Source: Enterobacteria phage RB18
Sequence record: NC_054906.1
Reading direction: 5' to 3' (one strand)
DNA length: 64,000 nucleotides
Positions 2,448 to 23,536 of the stretch are shown piece by piece. The number at the start of each line of letters is the position of its first letter. The stretch's first letter is position 1. The position numbers were made by a program, and so were the translations under genes. The notes under the pieces are model-generated. The model made no database searches. It was not told the origin of the DNA and was given only the letters and a program-made list of their open reading frames with translations.

Positions 2448-4267
2448 TACTGGCTCATCCATTCTTTACGAAGGTCAGCATTATCTCCCATGAGCATTTC
2501 AAAAAGCTCTTTCCAGTTCTCAGGAAGTTTAACAACATCATATACTGGGTTTTGAATCATCTCACGATATTCAGATTTTTCCAAAGAGCCAAGTCCCTTA
2601 ATATAACGGATGCTATGTTTAGGTAGAGCATCTTTGGCACTCTCATATTCAGCGACTGTATAAAACCATTCTTGTTTTTTACCGACCTGAGCGATGATTA
2701 CAGGAGTTTTGACAAAGCGAATTCGTCCTTGCTCAAACAATTCTGGCCAATTACTAAAAAATCCGAGCAGAGAAGGATAAATGCTTCCTAGACCATCATG
2801 GTCAGCATCAGTCATAATAGCAATATTATGATAATTCAAGTTTTCAGCTTTTTCACCAAGAACTAATCCAGTGATTGCGCAAATATCAAATAGTTCTTTA
2901 TTTTTAAGCATATCAGCATATGACATACCCCAACTGTTGAGAACTTTACCACGCAATGGATAACCACCATGAAGTTCTTTATCACGAACATCAATAAGAT
3001 ATCCGATAGCAGAATCACCCTCAGTCAAGAAAAGAGTAGTATCAGCATCTTTACCGCAAAGATTCGCTTTGATATGTTTATGAACCTTAGCTTTAGAAGC
3101 CTTTTTAGCTGCTTTAGTTTCTGCTGCTTTTTCTGCCGCCAATTTACGAGCCAAAGCAGCTTCAATAATCGGCATTAGAATTGCTTCATTATTTAGAATA
3201 GCACGTGAAATCTTTTTAGCATCAAGTTGAATATGACTACGGATTTCACCAAATGGAGAAGTCAAACGCTCTTTAGTTTGAGAATCAAATCGCATGTTTT
3301 TCATATCACGAACAAACATAACGATAGTCAAACATTCTTTGACACGCGCTTTGGTTACATCAATTTTGAACTTACGTTTGATTTGTGGAATAAGGTCTTC
3401 ACAAATATCATCCATAACACAGTCAATGTGATGGCCACCATTCTTAGTATGAATGTTATTGACGTATGTTAATTGACGAAAACCATCTGGTGAACGACCA
3501 ACCGCAATAGAACAATTTTCTTGTTCTTGAACGATAGCATGTTCATCATACTGTCGTGCGTATTTCTTAAAATTACCCTGAACCTTTTTACCATTAAAGG
3601 TAAATTGAATATCAGGATAAACAACAGCAAGTGTCTGGAGACGATCCAGTGTAATGTCAAGATAAACTTGGGACAGCTCATTAGTTTCAAATGACATAAA
3701 ATCAGGAATGAAAGTAACACGAGTTCCTTTCCATTTTCCAGGAATATCTTCCCATGATTTATTTTCCATGCCATTTGAGCAACGAACTACAATATTATTT
3801 TGACCATCGCCAGTTTCACCGACAAACATCACAGAAAAAATGTTTGTCAAACTAGAACCAACACCGTTCATACCGCCAGTGACGCGTTCTTTATCATCAC
3901 CGAAGTTACCACCTGCTTTTGGAATAGTCCATGCGGCAACAGGACCAGGAATTTCTTCACCGGTAGGTGTTTTAACCATCGCTTGTGGAATACCGCGACC
4001 GTTATCTTCAACTGTTACTTGATTGTTTTTAATAGTAACATTAATTTTATTTGCGAATTTAAACTTAGTACGAATACCTTCATCTACTGAGTTATCGATA
4101 ATTTCATCAATAAGCTTAACAAGACCAGGTACATACTGAACACTTTCCCATTTACCAAACAGAAAGCGCTCATGCATTTCATTAGCAGAAGAGCCAATAT
4201 ACATGCCGCTACGCTTTTTGATATGTTCAATATCGCTCAGAATTTTAATTTCATTCTTAATCATCAC
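2447..4267 (-). CDS. 39: DNA topoisomerase II large subunit, unsplit T2-type gp39 (GHKL ATPase + TOPRIM)
   Basis: 606-aa ORF; no separate gene 60 between rIIA.1 and 39; conserved position. Confidence 0.9.
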   Translation of the reverse strand: MMIKNEIKILSDIEHIKKRSGMYIGSSANEMHERFLFGKWESVQYVPGLVKLIDEIIDNSVDEGIRTKFKFANKINVTIKNNQVTVEDNGRGIPQAMVKTPTGEEIPGPVAAWTIPKAGGNFGDDKERVTGGMNGVGSSLTNIFSVMFVGETGDGQNNIVVRCSNGMENKSWEDIPGKWKGTRVTFIPDFMSFETNELSQVYLDITLDRLQTLAVVYPDIQFTFNGKKVQGNFKKYARQYDEHAIVQEQENCSIAVGRSPDGFRQLTYVNNIHTKNGGHHIDCVMDDICEDLIPQIKRKFKIDVTKARVKECLTIVMFVRDMKNMRFDSQTKERLTSPFGEIRSHIQLDAKKISRAILNNEAILMPIIEAALARKLAAEKAAETKAAKKASKAKVHKHIKANLCGKDADTTLFLTEGDSAIGYLIDVRDKELHGGYPLRGKVLNSWGMSYADMLKNKELFDICAITGLVLGEKAENLNYHNIAIMTDADHDGLGSIYPSLLGFFSNWPELFEQGRIRFVKTPVIIAQVGKKQEWFYTVAEYESAKDALPKHSIRYIKGLGSLEKSEYREMIQNPVYDVVKLPENWKELFEMLMGDNADLRKEWMSQ

Positions 4268-15161: not shown

Positions 15162-15407
15162 TTATTCACCAGTTACTTTCCACAAATCTTCATTTGCAGC
15201 AATCCATTCAGTACGTTGATTTTCTTCATATACTGTAGAATATGCTGCTTTTTCTGAAGGGAATGTCTGATAATGAGCACCAGAAATTTTGTGAACGTCA
15301 GAATAAAGAGGGAAAGCTACAGAAATTTCCTTTCCTTCAATTTTCTTATTTCCATCTAATTTCTGCTCAAATGTTTTGATATTAACATAACCGCGAGTAC
15401 TAGCCAT
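15162..15407 (-). CDS. soc: small outer capsid protein Soc
   Basis: 81 aa; MASTRGYVNIKTFEQKLDGNKKIEGKEISVAFPLYSDVHKISGAHYQTFPSEK matches recalled T4 Soc. Confidence 0.9.
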   Translation of the reverse strand: MASTRGYVNIKTFEQKLDGNKKIEGKEISVAFPLYSDVHKISGAHYQTFPSEKAAYSTVYEENQRTEWIAANEDLWKVTGE

Positions 15408-15633: not shown

Positions 15634-15833
15634 TTTGAATGCTCTATAATTAATTTTAAGGCTTCTTCACACACCAACTTGTCTAATGGTATATGCCCAG
15701 TTTTAATTGTGTAAGCTTTGTGGAGCTGATTAGATAAGAGCTCGTATGTGAGCTCTTTGTCATAATCTTTAAATAGCTGGTCAATACGTTTCTTGCGGGC
15801 TTTCTTAAGCTGGCGTTTATTTAAACGAGCCAT
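15630..15833 (-). CDS. hypothetical small basic protein
   Basis: 67-aa ORF. Confidence 0.45.
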   Translation of the reverse strand: MARLNKRQLKKARKKRIDQLFKDYDKELTYELLSNQLHKAYTIKTGHIPLDKLVCEEALKLIIEHSK

Positions 15834-16351
15834 TAATAGCCTCTGTCTTGACGAGCGAAGTTTTCAGCATTTTTCAGATAATAAAGTTTAAATATTTCTT
15901 CAGCTGACATTCCAAGAGCAATGAATTTATTCATGAAAAAGTGAAATTGATCAATCAGTTCAAATTTAATTTCAAGTTGATCTTCAGGAGATAAATCTTG
16001 AATTTTCTTGGATTGCATTTCAGAATAACGTTTCTTCCAAGGTTTCCATACAGCAGAAGCTTCTTTTTCACCATTACTCATACCACCAAGAGAAGTATAT
16101 AGCTCGCGAGTTTCGTCTGCGATATAATCGTCTTGGTTTCGCAGCCAAGCAAGAACTTCTCCTGCAGTTTCAAGTGAATCAGGATGACGATTTGTTTCTG
16201 GTTTATCATTAGCCAAACGAATCTGTAAATGCCGCTGCATATCAAGCATAACCTGCAGTGGGTCAATATTGTGCATAATATTCTCAGCATATGCACGATT
16301 TGCTTTATCAACACCTTCGATCAAATGAGCACATTCATTAAAGTAAGCCAT
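15833..16351 (-). CDS. 56: dCTP/dUTP pyrophosphatase gp56 (MazG-like)
   Basis: 172 aa from the internal ATG at 16351 (AGGAAA RBS), beginning MAYFNECAHLIEGVDKA like T4 gp56; the track N-terminal extension is rejected. Confidence 0.8.
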   Translation of the reverse strand: MAYFNECAHLIEGVDKANRAYAENIMHNIDPLQVMLDMQRHLQIRLANDKPETNRHPDSLETAGEVLAWLRNQDDYIADETRELYTSLGGMSNGEKEASAVWKPWKKRYSEMQSKKIQDLSPEDQLEIKFELIDQFHFFMNKFIALGMSAEEIFKLYYLKNAENFARQDRGY

Positions 16352-16385
16352 TATTTTTCCTTTCAATTCATGGGTTAGTAGATTA

Positions 16386-16410
16386 ATTATACAATAAATA
16401 TATAAAGCAA
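16386..16410 (-). promoter_or_regulatory. MotA-dependent middle promoter for gene 56
   Basis: minus strand reads TTGCTTTA, 11 nt, TATAAT. Confidence 0.45.
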
Positions 16411-16422
16411 TAAGGAGGACAT

Positions 16423-16623
16423 ATGATACAAAAATTAATGGCACTTGTTAATGCCATAAAAGGTAATAAGAAACGTATAGCTTTTACTATTTCTGCTATG
16501 GTAGGAATTTTACTCTGGAACTTTATTTTATCACCTGTTGCAATTGCACATGGTATTAATATTCCAGTAGTTACTCTTGATACATTCGTAGATTTAGCAT
16601 TTGCTTTAGTTGGGTTAATTTAA
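16423..16623 (+). CDS. candidate plus-strand small hydrophobic membrane protein
   Basis: 66-aa ORF in the 268-bp gap between 61 and 56; AAGGAGG SD 3-4 nt before the ATG; two predicted hydrophobic segments. Confidence 0.3.
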   Translation: MIQKLMALVNAIKGNKKRIAFTISAMVGILLWNFILSPVAIAHGINIPVVTLDTFVDLAFALVGLI

Positions 16624-17648
16624 ATCTTAGCATATTTAGATAACCGCATTTTAGCCATCAACCCCTGGGCAATATTATTTTTCATATATTCCATAATTTG
16701 TTCAGGGGTTGCACCTTCCTTTCTAATCATATCATTAACATCTTTTGATTTCCAGGGAGATTTATCCCAAAACATAACCCTTTCTCCTGCATCAACTAAT
16801 TTAGTCATTCGCTTAATAGTGTCAGGATGACGAGGTTCATTATCTAAAACCCACACACGTCTATCTTTAAATGGAACAACTTCTAGGTCTAATTGACCAC
16901 CCGTAATAGCTATACCATTTTCAATAAAAAGTGAATCTATAGGTCCTTCTAGAACATATACATCACCATCTTTAACTCGTTCGACTCCATAGATTTTTGT
17001 TGCTTCAGGATAAGCTTTGATGGTGATATATTTTTGGGGAGCATCTTTCTTTAATGCACGTCCTTGAAAAGACTCAGCTTTTCCATTAGCATTATAAATT
17101 GGAATAACAAGACGAGGCTCAGGTATTTCCTTTTTATATGTTCCCGGTGCTATGCTATTAACTAATTTAGGCCATTCAGTTGTAAACCAAAGATATTTCC
17201 ATTTATCCTTTGGAATACAACGAGCTTTTACATATTTTATAATTGCATGGTCTTCCGCCAGTTTATCTAATCGAACACATGACGGAAGAGATTTAATTAT
17301 TTTCTTCTCAGGTTGTTTAGGAAGTTCTTTAGGTTTTTCTACTGGACGACTTTTACCTTTTTCTTTTCTTATTTCAAAGATATACTCACGATATAAATCA
17401 GGTTCAAACTCCTTTAAATATATTCCGATTGGTGCATGATAGTTACAGTTATAACAATGAATATTTCCTTCATTATTATCACCATAATACCATCCACGAG
17501 CTTTATTCTGGTCGGTTTTTGAATCTCCACAAACAGGACATCTAAACCGTAATTTAAAAGTTGAACTATTATTTACTTGTGTGAATTTAGGTAAATGAGC
17601 TAATGCACGGTATGCAAACTCATTATCAATCCAAGGTATTGATGACAT
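16620..17648 (-). CDS. 61: DNA primase gp61 (zinc ribbon + TOPRIM)
   Basis: 342 aa as in T4; CPVCGDS...CYNC zinc ribbon. Confidence 0.9.
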   Translation of the reverse strand: MSSIPWIDNEFAYRALAHLPKFTQVNNSSTFKLRFRCPVCGDSKTDQNKARGWYYGDNNEGNIHCYNCNYHAPIGIYLKEFEPDLYREYIFEIRKEKGKSRPVEKPKELPKQPEKKIIKSLPSCVRLDKLAEDHAIIKYVKARCIPKDKWKYLWFTTEWPKLVNSIAPGTYKKEIPEPRLVIPIYNANGKAESFQGRALKKDAPQKYITIKAYPEATKIYGVERVKDGDVYVLEGPIDSLFIENGIAITGGQLDLEVVPFKDRRVWVLDNEPRHPDTIKRMTKLVDAGERVMFWDKSPWKSKDVNDMIRKEGATPEQIMEYMKNNIAQGLMAKMRLSKYAKI

Positions 17649-17650
17649 TT

Positions 17651-17815
17651 TTACTCTTCTTTTTCTTTAGATTCCTCTTTTTTCTTTTTAGGAATCTGTT
17701 CAGGGCCTTTATTTACTACAGCGCCTGACGTTGTTCCAGTAGAGATATTTTCAGGATTACCACCTGAATCTCCAGCGACCATATCTTCTTTGATAAATTC
17801 TTTATATGTTTTCAT
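17651..17815 (-). CDS. small protein with capsid-targeting-sequence-like N-terminus (54 aa), absent from the ORF track
   Basis: MKTYKEFIKEDMVAGDSGG... resembles the T4 internal-protein CTS MKTYQEFIAE; fills the gap between flanking genes exactly. Confidence 0.4.
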   Translation of the reverse strand: MKTYKEFIKEDMVAGDSGGNPENISTGTTSGAVVNKGPEQIPKKKKEESKEKEE

Positions 17816-17816
17816 A

Positions 17817-18173
17817 TTAACCTCTATTCATAAAAGCATTAAAAATTTGGTCATCAATAGATGGAATAGCAACCTTTTCGGCATCATTTAGCAAATCATT
17901 AATTTCATCAGATAGCATAACACATGTGCCTTTATTTCCTGTAATTGTTACTGCGCAATTACGAACGTTTTCTTTATCAAATTTTAGGTTAATATTTTCG
18001 TAGTGAAAATCCTTTAATGCCGAATATATCTTTAAAATGAAATTGTCTTTTACTACAATAAACCCAACTTCACTATTAAAACGTGGTTCATGGAAACTGT
18101 AATAAACCTTTTCATCTATGAAATCGTATGAAATTTTTTCCATTTTTAAATATGAAAATTCAGAACTATACAT
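17817..18173 (-). CDS. hypothetical protein sharing a C-terminal tail with the next gene
   Basis: 118 aa ending SIDDQIFNAFMNRG; 3' end lies inside a 45-nt direct repeat. Confidence 0.5.
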   Translation of the reverse strand: MYSSEFSYLKMEKISYDFIDEKVYYSFHEPRFNSEVGFIVVKDNFILKIYSALKDFHYENINLKFDKENVRNCAVTITGNKGTCVMLSDEINDLLNDAEKVAIPSIDDQIFNAFMNRG

Positions 18174-18174
18174 A

Positions 18175-18801
18175 TTAATCTCTATTCATAAAAGCATTAA
18201 AAATTTGGTCATCAATAGAAACATTTACTTTAGACTGTTTTTCAGATGGCAATTCATATCCACATATTACAATTTTATGATCAATATCAAAATACACAGA
18301 AGCAATATGATTAATGATATTTTCAGTGAAGTCTAAATCGACATCAATATCTTTTTGACCACAGCCCAAAGGATAAATAATGCGAGTAATTCGATTATCT
18401 TTAACAAATATTCCACCGACATACTCTGTACTGCGTTTAAAGTCTACACGCCGACGAAATGAAAAATATTCAGGCTCTTTATGAGCTCGGCTCATAGGAC
18501 ACAACGAATAACTAGAATAAGAGATGTCAAATCCTACGCCTTCGATATGAGCCAAAGTGTCATGATTAAACCAATTATAATCGTACGCCAAATCCATTAG
18601 ATTATAATATGTAAAAGGCACCGGATTAACATCATTAGTCACAAGCATGTAATTAGCAACTGCTATAATTTCATTGTTTTTAACGAATACAAACCGTGAT
18701 TGATGCGAATGACCTGGACCCGCGTTTTCACGATTAATGATATAACACTGGGCACCTTTATATTTGTATGTATCTTTGCACTTGTGCATTTGATAGAGCA
18801 T
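18175..18801 (-). CDS. hypothetical protein
   Basis: 208 aa ending SIDDQIFNAFMNRD; 3' end lies inside the same 45-nt direct repeat. Confidence 0.5.
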   Translation of the reverse strand: MLYQMHKCKDTYKYKGAQCYIINRENAGPGHSHQSRFVFVKNNEIIAVANYMLVTNDVNPVPFTYYNLMDLAYDYNWFNHDTLAHIEGVGFDISYSSYSLCPMSRAHKEPEYFSFRRRVDFKRSTEYVGGIFVKDNRITRIIYPLGCGQKDIDVDLDFTENIINHIASVYFDIDHKIVICGYELPSEKQSKVNVSIDDQIFNAFMNRD

Positions 18802-19094
18802 TATTCACCTACCACTTCAGCGATGATATTTTTGTTATTAAAGTTTTTATCGCAATACAGAACATAATTATACTGCATTACACCACCAGACTTAAGTTGT
18901 TTTTGCACTTCAGCTTTCATTTCAGGACGATCACGCTCAACGATATTCATAATATCCGCTTCAATTTGAGTTTCAACTTCAGTCTGATCCGCAGTCATAG
19001 ACCATTCGCACAAATCTTTATCATAACCTGCCATAGCAGGCTGAGCAGCGCAAGAAGCTAAAGCAAAAATTGTAGCAAAGATAAATTTTTTCAT
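18801..19094 (-). CDS. predicted lipoprotein
   Basis: 97 aa; signal peptide with lipobox LASC. Confidence 0.55.
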   Translation of the reverse strand: MKKFIFATIFALASCAAQPAMAGYDKDLCEWSMTADQTEVETQIEADIMNIVERDRPEMKAEVQKQLKSGGVMQYNYVLYCDKNFNNKNIIAEVVGE

Positions 19095-19122
19095 GATAAT
19101 CTCCTCAGTAGTTTATGTTTAT

Positions 19123-19152
19123 ATAGTATCTCAATTTCCAACAAAAGTAAAC
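19123..19152 (-). promoter_or_regulatory. early promoter (GTTTAC-18-TACTAT)
   Basis: minus-strand consensus upstream of the lipoprotein gene. Confidence 0.5.
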
Positions 19153-19154
19153 AG

Positions 19155-19454
19155 TTATTTTAAAATTTCTGCGTAATCACATGTTACAAACTGTTTCTCT
19201 AGCTTGACGATTTTACGAAAGTATCTTTTGCATTGGCGAATCTGCCTCTTCGTAGGGCGAACAGCAAACTTAATAAATTCCACTCGACCAAATGGAGGAC
19301 TTTCTTCTGCTGGAATATCTAACACCAATTCCCACGTATCTGCAATAAGTGCTTTGAATTGCGTATTTTTCCTGACGTTATACGGAGTAGGTTTAAATAA
19401 AACAATATGCATATTATCCTCGGCAATCCACTTCACATACTTTCTTGTCATCAA
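19155..19454 (-). CDS. hypothetical protein
   Basis: 99-aa ORF. Confidence 0.5.
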   Translation of the reverse strand: MMTRKYVKWIAEDNMHIVLFKPTPYNVRKNTQFKALIADTWELVLDIPAEESPPFGRVEFIKFAVRPTKRQIRQCKRYFRKIVKLEKQFVTCDYAEILK

Positions 19455-19596
19455 TGAAAGCTTTAACTAATGCTTTATTAACTTCAGCATATTGAGTAGT
19501 AGCCCATTGAACGTCATCTTTCATCATTGTGATTTCTTTAGTAAACATACTTTCGTTCTTAAACCACCCCATAAAAACTACTTTTACCAATTCCAT
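19414..19596 (-). CDS. hypothetical small protein
   Basis: 60-aa ORF overlapping its neighbour. Confidence 0.35.
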   Translation of the reverse strand: MELVKVVFMGWFKNESMFTKEITMMKDDVQWATTQYAEVNKALVKAFIDDKKVCEVDCRG

Positions 19597-19625
19597 AACA
19601 ATCTCCTCATTTAACCAACAAGACT

Positions 19626-19655
19626 ACTATACCATAGTCTTGTCAGCTTGTAAAC
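19626..19655 (-). promoter_or_regulatory. early promoter (GTTTAC-18-TATAGT)
   Basis: minus-strand consensus at the 3' end of gene 41; -10 lies inside the inverted repeat caagacta...tagtcttg. Confidence 0.5.
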
Positions 19656-21082
19656 TAAAATTTTAATTCATTTGCCAAAGCATCTAACTGAGCTCGAGTG
19701 GATTCATTTCTTTGATAGCGATTCTGCTCAGCTTGTATCTGTTGTGAACCTGCTACCTCACTCACTTCAGTTGGAGTAGAATCTTGTTCAATTTCTACCC
19801 ATTTCTGATTTCCTTTTTGAACACCCATCAAAAACTTATTCCATTTGTTCTTATCGCCATATCGTGATTTGATTTGCTTAATGAGTTGTTGTTCAGCAGC
19901 TGCTAGCTCCTCGGTTTCAATGACCGCAAGCATAAAATCGGCTGTTGCTGGAAGACCGGCAGATTCTGCAATATCGCTCATGTTAACATCAGAAGAATCC
20001 CAAGCTTGTTTACCAACCTGTGCTGCAGTCCAAAGAACAGTTTCGGTTTCAACAGCAAGAGCACGCAATTCCTCTGCAATAGCTTTAACAGTTGTGTAAC
20101 TATTTTCTGAATAAACTCTGATGCGACAAGATTTACAAATACCCAGATAGTCGACAATAATGATTGTTGGAACAAAATTCTTCTTGAGCTTCAATTCGTT
20201 TAAAAGTGATCGAAATGTATTAGCATCTGCTCCACCAGTAGGATACTGTTTAACGATTAAACGACCGAGAGTAGATTTCTCACGCCATTTTTCCATTTTT
20301 CCTTTATACTCAGCGTAAGAAATATGCCCATCATCAATGTCATCAAGAGAAACATCAAGCATATTAGCATCAATACGTTTAGCACAGACTTCTTCTGCCA
20401 TTTCCATGGAAATGTAAAGAACATTATGTCCGAGCTGTAAATAATCTGCTGCCAATGAACACAGACCTAATGACTTACCAACGTTAACGCCAGCCATTAA
20501 AACGTTCAGCGTTCCAGTTTCAGCTCCGCCTTTCGTAATTTTGTTTAGAATTCTGAGTTTAAATGGAACCTTACGAGCTTTATTCATATAAGATAGCCAA
20601 CGTGCTTCATAGTCATCCATCCAATCATGACCAACGTAACTATCAAATGAAATTGATAATGCTTGGCGCATGATGTCAGGAATAGCACCAACATCCGGCA
20701 TTTTCTTATTTCGTTTTTCCGGAGGAAGCTCAGCATTAGTTTGAATTTCAATTATTTTAGACGTAGCATTAAACATCGCCCTTTGCTGAACATATTTTTC
20801 TGTTTCTTTTACTAACCAGCTGTGGTCTTCCGGAGAATCGGCTAGTTTTGAAATAAGTGTTTTTACACCAGAATATTCTGTTTCAGTAAATGAACTATTT
20901 TCTAATGCAACATTTAACGCATTGATAGATGGAACGCTATGATACTCATTAACATGGGATTTAATTAATTTGAATGTATTTTTAGCTGGACCACTTTCAA
21001 AATATTCTGAATCCATATATGGCCAAACTTTTGAAAAATAAGCTTGATCAAATATGAGATGAGAAAGAATAATTTCTACCAC
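19655..21082 (-). CDS. 41: replicative DNA helicase gp41 (DnaB-like)
   Basis: 475 aa as in T4; RecA-fold ATPase; position. Confidence 0.9.
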   Translation of the reverse strand: MVEIILSHLIFDQAYFSKVWPYMDSEYFESGPAKNTFKLIKSHVNEYHSVPSINALNVALENSSFTETEYSGVKTLISKLADSPEDHSWLVKETEKYVQQRAMFNATSKIIEIQTNAELPPEKRNKKMPDVGAIPDIMRQALSISFDSYVGHDWMDDYEARWLSYMNKARKVPFKLRILNKITKGGAETGTLNVLMAGVNVGKSLGLCSLAADYLQLGHNVLYISMEMAEEVCAKRIDANMLDVSLDDIDDGHISYAEYKGKMEKWREKSTLGRLIVKQYPTGGADANTFRSLLNELKLKKNFVPTIIIVDYLGICKSCRIRVYSENSYTTVKAIAEELRALAVETETVLWTAAQVGKQAWDSSDVNMSDIAESAGLPATADFMLAVIETEELAAAEQQLIKQIKSRYGDKNKWNKFLMGVQKGNQKWVEIEQDSTPTEVSEVAGSQQIQAEQNRYQRNESTRAQLDALANELKF

Positions 21083-22687: not shown

Positions 22688-23536
22688 TTAATCAACTGCT
22701 ATCGGATGAATAGCATTAAACTTATGAAATGCTTCTGATTTTTCTTTGCGCGAAACACACATGCGAAGAACCTTTAATGGCTCGTCTTCTTCACCCAACG
22801 ATTTTCGTTTTTCAATATTAGAAGTTTTCCAACGAGCTTGCTCTGGAAACTCTCTATTGATTTGCTCAAGCGCTCTATTATGTTTAGAATTACTGCGAAT
22901 TGAACTGCACCCGCCAGGAGCTTGTGCTTTTCCAGATACAACTAGATATTTGAACAAGGCCAAATGCGGATAACCTTGATTAATTAAATTGAGAAATGCA
23001 TACATATCTTCGCATAAATCAATTTTTCCATACCCAATTTGTTCTGTAGTAAGTTTTCCGAGGTCATACCATGTATTCGTGAATCCATATGAATTTTCAC
23101 GATAATTACCCCAAGATGAAGTAATTTTAAAAATAGGTAGACGAGCATGGCCATGATAATACCCACAATCCATGGCATCCTCAACATATTGAATCAATTC
23201 ATAGAACTGTTCACGAGTCAATTGATTGACTTTATCTACACAACGACGATCATCTCTTTTTCGCATTGAACTCATACGAATAGTAGTATCATCGTCAATC
23301 ATCCAGATTCGTTGACCTGCATACGTATCAGTAATTGCTTTACGAGTACCGGCAATTCCGTTTACATCATCAGGAATAGTTATAATTTTAGCTCTAGACC
23401 CATAGACATCATAATAAGCTTTTTCTTCGTGTTCACGCACTACAATATGAGGTTCATAATCAGTCGGAAACATATCAAGGGCAGAAACTGCCCCGACACG
23501 CTGATAACTTGGAATTACGAATTGAATCATTTCCAC
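22688..23536 (-). CDS. GT-A glycosyltransferase at the beta-gt locus (possibly beta-glucosyl-HMC-alpha-glucosyltransferase type)
   Basis: 282 aa with DXD-type motif IWMIDDDTTI; sits where T4 has the 351-aa beta-gt. Confidence 0.5.
   Translation of the reverse strand: MEMIQFVIPSYQRVGAVSALDMFPTDYEPHIVVREHEEKAYYDVYGSRAKIITIPDDVNGIAGTRKAITDTYAGQRIWMIDDDTTIRMSSMRKRDDRRCVDKVNQLTREQFYELIQYVEDAMDCGYYHGHARLPIFKITSSWGNYRENSYGFTNTWYDLGKLTTEQIGYGKIDLCEDMYAFLNLINQGYPHLALFKYLVVSGKAQAPGGCSSIRSNSKHNRALEQINREFPEQARWKTSNIEKRKSLGEEDEPLKVLRMCVSRKEKSEAFHKFNAIHPIAVD

Follow-up and report, generated by a model that had tools for sequence, protein, structure and literature searches.

The gene cluster between the primase and helicase genes

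The region considered here lies in a 64,000-nucleotide stretch (the window) of the genome of Enterobacteria phage RB18 (NC_054906.1), a T4-like phage of the Tequatrovirus group. Six ORFs, all on the minus strand, occupy positions 17651-19654 exactly. They are flanked on one side by the DNA primase gene 61 (16620..17648, minus strand, 342 aa, 98.8% identical to T4 gp61) and on the other by the replicative helicase gene 41 (19655..21082, minus strand, 99.8% identical to T4 gp41). Five of the six products share 96-100% amino acid identity with the T4 products of 61.1, 61.2, sp, 61.4 and dmd, which the T4 reference annotation (NC_000866) likewise places between genes 61 and 41, and the annotations of T4, T2 and slur02 agree on the cluster. 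It is very probable that the region is the ordinary T4 gene cluster 61.1–61.5 with one extra, short relative of adfA. An earlier note on this DNA had correctly placed six ORFs between primase and helicase; its premise that nothing separates gene 41 from gene 61 in T4 was mistaken, since NC_000866 has five genes between them. When the segment 16620-21082 is used as a query, it is covered to at least 80% in 383 phage records.

Just downstream of gene 41, in the same position as in T4, lies dmd (gene 61.5; 19414..19596, minus strand). Its 60-aa product is 100% identical to T4 Dmd, scores 156.9 bits against the Dmd profile (PF17587) and matches a solved structure (PDB 5hy3 chain B, ‘Antitoxin Dmd’). 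The identical T4 protein inhibits the toxins RnlA and LsoA directly (PMC9391042). Co-operonic with dmd is tifA (gene 61.4; 19155..19412, minus strand), encoding the ToxN inhibitor described in PMC9391042 and PMC10853763. This small protein adjoining Dmd has 85 aa, is 100% identical to T4 gp61.4, scores 72.7 bits against DUF7279 (PF23945), contains a central basic cluster (RPTKRQIRQCKRYFRK) and has no sequence match in the PDB. Its true start is the ATG at 19412; the 99-aa ORF reported earlier is a mechanical extension to a TTG codon.

The third gene, sp (gene 61.3; 18801..19094, minus strand), encodes Spackle, a periplasmic inhibitor of the gp5 tail lysozyme (97 aa, 99% identical to T4 Sp, 151 bits against the T4_Spackle profile PF25676). 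Several solved structures match it (6x6o, 6xc0, 6xc1, 7cn6, 7cn7), and the crystal constructs begin at residue 23. N-terminal sequencing of T4 Spackle demonstrated cleavage of a signal peptide of 22 residues, which leaves a mature protein that starts at residue 23 and is soluble in the periplasm (PMC7650644; see also PMC7677548). The sole difference from T4, E53K, falls in the mature part and the signal peptide is the same. A lipobox-like LASC motif is present at residues 12-15, but the mature N-terminus is residue 23 and not an acylated lipobox cysteine, so the lipoprotein label once given to this ORF does not apply.

The next gene is adfA (gene 61.2, anti-DarT factor A; 18175..18801, minus strand), whose 208-aa product is 97% identical to T4 gp61.2 and a full-length member of PF23813 (450 bits, profile positions 1-210 of 211). 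AdfA is known from T4 and RB69 as an anti-defence protein that binds DarT1, a DarT ADP-ribosyltransferase, and changing Arg164 of RB69 AdfA to His confers DarT1 binding (PMC11825919). The residue that aligns with RB69 Arg164 is His165 in the protein encoded here. Removing adfA from T4 had no phenotypic effect against DarTG1 (PMC11257639), so that a target can be named only tentatively for T4-type AdfA, and likewise for its paralogue. AdfA has no sequence match in the PDB, and its AlphaFold2 model shows a two-module topology. Together with this topology, a motif found in both halves, xYxF…G.(I/F)VK(D/N)N.I, hints at a duplication within the protein. An internal tandem duplication was left unproven, the hhalign comparison of the N- and C-terminal halves reaching only 30% probability.

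Downstream of adfA are an ORF of 118 codons (17817..18173, minus strand), the sole gene of the cluster that is absent from T4 and annotated as ‘61.2’ in T2, and gene 61.1 (17651..17815, minus strand, 54 aa, 96% identical to T4 gp61.1). The latter is the most widely conserved gene of the slot, with homologues in T2, RB69, VR25, RB49 and L009. Its product matches phrog_1823 and no Pfam family; PMC1524935 counts the gene among conserved ORFs whose function is unknown. On the plus strand, ORFs of 72-97 aa run opposite adfA, sp and tifA. They were set aside as mechanical, since the genes that they face are conserved at 97-100% and the ORFs themselves are unannotated in every record searched.

Pfam families are thus assigned across the cluster (Dmd, DUF7279 of the TifA family, T4_Spackle and AdfA), while an NCBIfam search with the six proteins gave no matches and an Rfam search of 17400-19900 returned nothing beyond a single match at E 0.93. 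The slot is occupied by accessory genes for host interaction and anti-defence, among them three experimentally shown toxin inhibitors (Dmd, TifA and AdfA) and one superinfection-exclusion factor (Spackle). These functions were shown for the T4 and RB69 proteins and are transferred here on 97-100% identity. The earlier guess of anti-defence or host-interaction cargo was therefore right, and its companion statement that none of the ORFs has a recognisable function was not: four of the six have published functions. The cluster and its anti-defence role were already known from literature of 2012-2022, Srikant et al. 2022 (eLife, PMC9391042) naming the region the “anti-TA island”, and only small points, of possible use in work on AdfA and DarTG, are added here.

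Two early promoters had also been proposed. One is a strong match, located upstream of dmd (19626..19654, minus strand; TTTACA-17-TATAGT with a TG extension, 10/12), where an early T4 promoter drives dmd-tifA (PMC9391042). The other, upstream of sp (19123..19151, minus strand; TTTACT-17-TACTAT), is weaker, matching at 8/12 and falling below the scan threshold, and the record of phage Lutter has a promoter annotated at the homologous place. The scan as a whole did not exceed chance (14 sites against 12.7 expected). Very probably the small accessory genes are transcribed together with the replication genes: the early promoter directly after gene 41 serves dmd and tifA, and the second, early-type promoter probably serves sp, adfA, the 118-aa gene and 61.1. 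In this reading the products counteract the toxin-antitoxin systems of the host or shut out superinfecting phage: Dmd binds the RNases RnlA and LsoA, TifA traps ToxN on RNA, AdfA binds a DarT ADP-ribosyltransferase, and exported Spackle blocks the gp5 lysozyme.

The shared tail and the middle promoter P61

The 208-aa and 118-aa ORFs end in a common tail, as the earlier note had seen. This tail is a 49-nt direct repeat, identical at 48 of 49 positions. Copy 1 (17813..17861, minus strand) comprises the 3' tail and stop codon of the 118-aa gene together with the ATG of 61.1, and copy 2 (18171..18219, minus strand) comprises the 3' tail and stop codon of adfA together with the ATG of the 118-aa ORF. 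The repeat encodes the conserved C-terminal peptide of the AdfA family, DDQIFNAFMNRG.

The same nucleotides hold a middle promoter. The MotA consensus is wwwTGCTTtA, placed 12±1 bp from the -10, and the T4 promoter P61 starts at T4 position 19122 (Table 1, PMC2988021). That position is homologous to 17807 in the window and lies 7 nt downstream of the TAATAT, which runs across the stop codon of 61.2 and into the ATG of 61.1. At copy 1, P61 (17807..17841, minus strand) consists of the MotA box TAATGCTTTT (17841-17832), a 12-nt spacer and the -10 TAATAT (17819-17814), with a predicted start at 17807; box, spacing, -10 and mapped T4 position all agree with a MotA promoter. A second promoter of the P61 type is predicted in the adfA tail (18165..18199, minus strand; box 18199-18190, -10 18177-18172), and would start transcription near 18165, within the first codons of the 118-aa ORF. 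The two copies have the same MotA box, the same spacing of 12 nt and the same TAATAT -10 and differ by one nucleotide in the spacer, and the Lutter record annotates a ‘promoter’ at both tails. At the level of sequence, then, the mapped T4 promoter P61 is duplicated in this genome. MotA-dependent transcription from P61, embedded in the last codons of an AdfA-family gene, very probably serves the primase gene 61.

Is the tail conserved as DNA or as protein? If it were kept only as the promoter P61, the encoded peptide would be incidental. The fit of the mapped P61 start speaks for this reading. So does the fact that none of the Tequatrovirus copies examined differs in the MotA box or the -10, even at synonymous sites. 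Outside this group, however, RB69, VR25, L008 and L009 keep the peptide DDQIFNAFM[NK]RG while synonymous changes alter the TGCTT core (to TGCATT, TGCCTT or CGCTT). The -10 is also lost in L008, and the two copies within the single VR25 genome differ at several synonymous sites. Retention of the peptide where the promoter core has changed points to selection on the protein, with the promoter overlaid on it in Tequatrovirus, and conservation as promoter DNA alone is accordingly rather unlikely. The C-terminal peptide of the family thus overlaps P61, and in phages with both genes a duplicated promoter flanks a gene that is variably present.

A one-module relative of AdfA

The 118-aa protein matches phrog_4122 and reaches 34.1 bits against PF23813 (gathering cut-off 27), covering only profile positions 113-211 of 211; PF23813 is also the precomputed Pfam domain on all five of its homologue clusters. 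It is 34% identical to residues 109-207 of AdfA (BLASTP E 9e-8), and hhalign pairs it with the C-terminal half of AdfA at 97.6% probability. The AlphaFold2 model is compact (pLDDT 83.5) and consists of one sheet-plus-helix module and a tail helix, compared with two modules in AdfA. The N-terminal module is absent, and with it the two-module AdfA architecture of ~210 aa. Judged by these alignments and models, the 118-aa ORF encodes a paralogue of the C-terminal half of AdfA.

Could it instead be a non-functional pseudogene, the decaying remnant of a tandem adfA duplication? The ORF spans just the C-terminal half of the AdfA profile, the gene has been lost in T4 with no obvious harm, and an RNA initiated at the upstream copy of P61 would have its 5' end within the first codons of the ORF. 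Decay is nevertheless difficult to reconcile with its distribution. A tblastn search with the protein matches 335 phage records, 293 of them at 80% identity or more, and in these 293 the ORF is intact and of the same length. Gaprivervirus orthologues, in another genus, have 119 aa and 45-50% identity with the frame kept, and some metagenomic T4-like phages have, at the same position, a more divergent form of 120-125 aa and no other AdfA-like gene. The compact predicted fold argues in the same direction, as does the overlap of the ATG with the adfA stop codon (TAATATG), a stop/start overlap being the usual T4 arrangement for translational coupling. On this evidence the ORF is a real gene, and a pseudogene is very unlikely.

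For the intact paralogue, a function can be proposed from its relationship to AdfA. We infer that the protein, which has the same C-terminal helix peptide, acts like AdfA as an inhibitor that binds a toxin, but that its target differs. Two features speak against this: Asn72 aligns with RB69 R164 and T4 H165, so that the specificity His is absent, and the N-terminal module is missing. More broadly, and tentatively, the one-module AdfA-like proteins (the 118-aa ORF, the T2 ‘61.2’ and the 119-125-aa Gaprivervirus and metagenomic forms) might be stand-alone toxin binders, each with its own target range. The invariant C-terminal helix DDQIFNAFM[NK]RG would be their shared functional element, and its coding sequence in Tequatrovirus might double as P61 and as a recombination site through which modules are gained, lost or swapped.

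Variation among relatives and known counterparts

In an alignment, T4 corresponds to the present genome minus exactly one repeat unit and the 118-aa gene, with the deletion boundaries exactly at the repeat. T2 corresponds to the present genome minus the body of adfA, of which ~13 nt of the 3' end remain. The T2 junction (…TGAATAAT|TAGAGG…) was considered as a site of microhomology; it is not a clean microhomology product, and no claim is made. Counted by junction in the phage collection, 269 records are of the T4 type, 152 of the RB18 type with both genes and 141 of the T2 type. The last two sum to the 293 records that carry the 118-aa gene, roughly one in two of the sampled phages closely related to T4, and whether a phage has it is a common polymorphism. 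Homologous recombination between the 49-nt flanking repeats may allow the gene to be gained or lost; the direction of the event, deletion in T4 versus insertion here, we infer from the distribution.

In the synteny comparison suggested earlier, the observation named there as refuting an insertion, the same genes lying between 41 and 61 in the T-even phages, holds for 61.1, sp, tifA and dmd; within the cluster, adfA and the 118-aa gene are the only ones that some phages lack. The slot contains five genes in T4 and in RB49, six here, and 11 in RB69 and VR25; larger versions of the cluster occur in RB69, VR25 and two metagenomic T4-like phages. A protein adjoining dmd in RB69, VR25, L008 and L009 is reminiscent of Arr-type ADP-ribosyltransferases; it has no Pfam family and no PDB sequence match, does not occur in the stretch of genome studied here, and was dropped as a candidate.

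Recent acquisition of the region as a foreign island, inserted between two core genes that would otherwise adjoin, can be dismissed as highly implausible. The genes are small and accessory and slot content does vary between genera, but T4 and T2 have these genes in unchanged order and with identities of 96-100%, versions of the cluster are also found in RB69, VR25 and RB49, and genes 61 and 41 are separated in every relative examined, while the GC content of 0.26-0.37 is similar to that of the flanks and the copy in this genome holds no integrase, homing endonuclease or tRNA. The cluster therefore differs from a genomic island in that T4, T2 and hundreds of relatives have it, with unremarkable composition and no mobility gene; only the 118-aa gene is flanked by repeats.

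The closest counterpart is the T4 61.1-61.5 cluster itself, which has the same position, order and strand, the same dmd promoter, the same promoter-like sequence upstream of sp and the same P61. Compared with T4, the present genome has the extra 118-aa gene and an extra 49-nt tail/P61 repeat between adfA and 61.1. The T2 ‘61.2’ (YP_010073683, annotated at 108 aa from the second ATG) is an orthologue of the 118-aa ORF, 94% identical over the full 118 aa (tblastn) and likewise upstream of 61.1. T2 has been described as having no adfA homologue (PMC11825919), because it has no adfA body. Some 293 phage records, T2 included, encode a short AdfA paralogue that went uncounted as an adfA homologue in surveys for full-length adfA. 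If the function proposed above is correct, T2 and other phages described as being without adfA would nonetheless encode an inhibitor of the AdfA type.

With respect to the AdfA of RB69 and T4 (PF23813), the 208-aa protein is full-length and carries the His allele. The 118-aa protein shares the C-terminal module and tail helix, but its N-terminal module is missing and Asn occupies the His/Arg position that determines specificity.

Modular shuffling of T4-type genomes by way of promoter-early stem-loop cassettes was reportedly described by Arbiol, Comeau and Krisch in 2010. These cassettes resemble the present arrangement in that a short, conserved, promoter-bearing sequence flanks a variably present gene; here the repeat marks the exact deletion boundary. 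They differ in the nature and placement of the promoter, which in the cassettes is an intergenic early promoter with a stem-loop and at this locus is a middle (MotA) promoter within a coding tail.

The gene cluster between primase and helicase

Every gene in the 14-23 kb part of the window lies on the minus strand, and six ORFs are tightly packed between gene 61 (primase, 16620-17648 (-), 98.8% identical to T4 gp61) and gene 41 (helicase, 19655-21082 (-), 99.8% identical to T4 gp41), with the number and coordinates given in the earlier note. These are 61.1 (54 aa, 17651-17815 (-), 96% identical to the T4 protein), a 118-aa ORF without a T4 counterpart (17817-18173 (-)), 61.2 or adfA (208 aa, 18175-18801 (-), 97%), sp or 61.3 (97 aa, 18801-19094 (-), 99%), 61.4 or tifA (85 aa from its ATG, 19155-19412 (-), 100%) and dmd or 61.5 (60 aa, 19414-19596 (-), 100%). 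A 99-aa version of tifA, reaching 19454, is a TTG extension of the 85-aa ORF. The GC content of the interval (0.26-0.37) is the same as that of its flanks, and neither Rfam families nor terminator-like sites were found in the 61-41 region.

Genes 41 and 61 had been taken to be adjacent in T4, which is incorrect: the reference record (NC_000866) annotates 61.1, 61.2, sp, 61.4 and dmd between them. Megablast of 16620-21082 matched 592 phage records, 383 of them with a query coverage of 80% or more; most of these are Tequatrovirus genomes, 95-99% identical, headed by slur02 and slur04 at 98.2%. At this position, many of the matched records are annotated "spackle periplasmic" and "Dmd discriminator of mRNA degradation". 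Judged by sequence, the interval is the known T4 61.1-61.5 cluster.

Nor are the products devoid of recognisable function, as had been supposed. Pfam identifies Dmd (PF17587), DUF7279, the TifA family (PF23945), T4_Spackle (PF25676) and AdfA (PF23813), leaving 61.1 as the only one of the six proteins without a family. Solved structures match Spackle (6x6o, 6xc0, 6xc1, 7cn6, 7cn7) and Dmd (5hy3); none were found for AdfA and TifA. Spackle is a secreted protein and therefore not the lipoprotein initially proposed, the LASC motif at residues 12-15 notwithstanding. In T2, sp (2194-2472 of the locus) contains one inserted nucleotide close to the 3' end (AAAAATAATC versus AAAAATATC), because of which T2 Spackle is annotated at 92 aa.

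The guess that the cargo serves anti-defence was right, and is already in print. Dmd directly inhibits the RnlA toxin, and the product of 61.4, renamed tifA, inhibits the endoribonuclease ToxN; amplification of the dmd-tifA operon, which is transcribed from an early promoter ahead of dmd, allows T4 to escape plasmid-borne toxIN (PMC9391042). TifA binds both ToxN and RNA, trapping ToxN in a ribonucleoprotein complex (PMC10853763). Gene 61.2 encodes the anti-DarT factor AdfA; the R164H substitution in RB69 AdfA confers DarT1 binding, and His is found in most T-even alleles (PMC11257639, PMC11825919). The window AdfA has His165 at the aligned residue. Srikant et al. proposed that the region "may be an anti-TA island", its remaining genes being anti-toxin candidates (PMC9391042).

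Of two early promoters suggested earlier, the one upstream of dmd (10/12 match plus TG extension) agrees with the literature (PMC9391042), while that upstream of sp is weaker (8/12), with a promoter annotated there in the Lutter record. The consensus scan as a whole performed at chance level (14 sites against 12.7 expected), so both assignments rest on T4 homology and not on the scan.

A short paralogue of AdfA

The residual novelty is small. One part of it is the 118-aa ORF, a short paralogue in the AdfA family that papers on AdfA leave out when they count adfA homologues. Its homology is to the C-terminal half of AdfA, which it matches by BLASTP (E 9e-8; 34% identity across 105 alignment columns) and by hhalign (97.6% probability); it also matches the Pfam AdfA profile at positions 113-211 of 211 (34.1 bits, cut-off 27). 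In PHROG it constitutes a separate family, phrog_4122. Its AlphaFold2 model is confident (pLDDT 83.5, pTM 0.72), with a five-stranded sheet, a helix, a strand, a helix and a C-terminal helix, the last being the shared tail and of lower confidence. For AdfA itself the prediction is less confident (pLDDT 71) and has two sheet-plus-helix modules with the same tail helix; sequence support for an internal duplication is weak (hhalign, 30% probability).

The 118-aa ORF is a real and widespread gene. With tblastn it matched 335 phage records, 293 at 80% identity or more, including T2, where it is annotated "61.2"; Gaprivervirus orthologues are about 119 aa long and 45-50% identical. When 1.84 billion cluster representatives were searched exhaustively with a profile, ten matches only were obtained: a single cluster of full-length AdfA, that of the 118-aa protein, three other one-module clusters (119, 125 and 120 aa) and fragments. 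The family is limited to T4-like phages, and its short form is more diverse than the full-length one. The 125-aa and 120-aa genes directly follow Spackle in metagenomic T4-like contigs, which share the overall order 41, …, dmd (in one locus, L009), a TifA-family gene, Spackle, the short AdfA-like gene, small ORFs and 61.

A shared tail, a middle promoter and a polymorphism

The tail-sharing pair of the earlier note proved to be adfA and the 118-aa gene, whose 3' ends form a 49-nt direct repeat (17813-17861 and 18171-18219; 48/49 identical). Within the repeat, TAATGCTTTT and, 12 nt away, TAATAT constitute a near-consensus MotA box and -10 element. The T4 middle promoter P61 has a listed start site at 19122 (PMC2988021, Table 1), exactly 7 nt past the TAATAT lying across the stop codon of 61.2 and the ATG of 61.1 (19130). 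The P61 sequence thus occurs twice in the window, with predicted starts at ~17807 and ~18165.

Every family member ends in DDQIFNAFM[NK]RG, even where identity between the bodies falls below 35%. Synonymous sites are altered and the peptide is retained in RB69, VR25 and the metagenomic loci L008 and L009, so the tail peptide is under protein-level selection. The TGCTT core is altered in these same phages, as is the -10 in L008; the peptide is therefore the older element, over which Tequatrovirus has laid the exact promoter.

The repeat also marks the boundaries of a presence/absence polymorphism, and this coincidence of tail peptide, P61 and boundaries is the other part of the small novelty. 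Aligning the window, Lutter, T4 and T2 shows that the 358 bp missing from T4 are exactly the 118-aa gene and one unit of the repeat, T4 AdfA ending in …NRG like the downstream copy, and that T2 lacks the adfA body, keeping ~13 nt of its 3' end. Both genes are present in the window, slur02 and Lutter. Junction-specific megablast queries found adfA followed by 61.1 (T4 type) in 269 records, adfA followed by the 118-aa gene (window type) in 152 and sp followed by the 118-aa gene (T2 type) in 141. The last two sum to 293, the count of records with the 118-aa gene, which is thus present in about half of the Tequatrovirus-type records counted by junction (293/562).

The 61-41 slot and comparison with T4

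The slot is filled in every relative examined, none having 61 directly adjoining 41, and the proposed island inserted between core genes falls with this. RB69 (Mosigvirus) has 11 genes there (61.1, two small ORFs, adfA, sp, imm, imm.1, tifA, dmd and two more), VR25 (Gaprivervirus) 11, including two AdfA-like and two TifA-like genes, and RB49 (Krischvirus) five, sharing only 61.1. By synteny, the slot is a conserved yet plastic accessory locus and no insertion peculiar to the window genome. Paralogue expansion appears typical of it. The VR25 TifA-like paralogues (1407-1703, 98 aa; 2859-3080, 73 aa; locus L004) both contain an RPTKRQIR motif.

A conserved ~100-aa protein (FYHGS…SETGRKKNL…VFFTED…YHAEWAFCEEI) without a copy in the window lies near dmd in RB69 (RB69ORF040c, L006 6153-6470), VR25 (L004 584-874), L008 (2036-2326) and L009 (1549-1866), directly adjoining it in RB69, VR25 and L009. 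It has no Pfam or PDB sequence match, and presumably resembles Arr-type ADP-ribosyltransferases. In L009 an HNH endonuclease gene (871-1491) directly follows gene 41 at the island edge. At the other end, gp61.1 (17651-17815 (-)) matches just the C-terminal part of longer homologues (RB69, 92 aa, L006 3318-3596; L008, 154 aa, 3613-4077; the phrog_2086 profile, 156 positions), and 61.1 of the T4 type may have been shortened. Transcription from P61, as mapped, begins within 61.1.

The window differs from T4 outside the slot as well. Between genes 56 and 61, where T4 has dam, the window has a hydrophobic ORF of 66 aa on the opposite strand (16423-16623 (+)); it matches no Pfam family, and the corresponding position carries a hypothetical-protein annotation in slur02, Lutter, RB69 (ORF029w), VR25 and metagenomic loci. 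T4 carries the homing-endonuclease gene segF between soc and gene 56, whereas the window has two small ORFs in its place, between soc (15162-15407) and gene 56 (15833-16444 (-)). Directly after uvsX, a 282-aa ORF (22688-23536 (-)) matches the TET-associated glycosyltransferase family (PF20691, 38.5 bits), where T4 has segA, absent from the window, and a 351-aa beta-glucosyltransferase. The DNA-glucosylation enzyme set of the window phage probably differs from that of T4.
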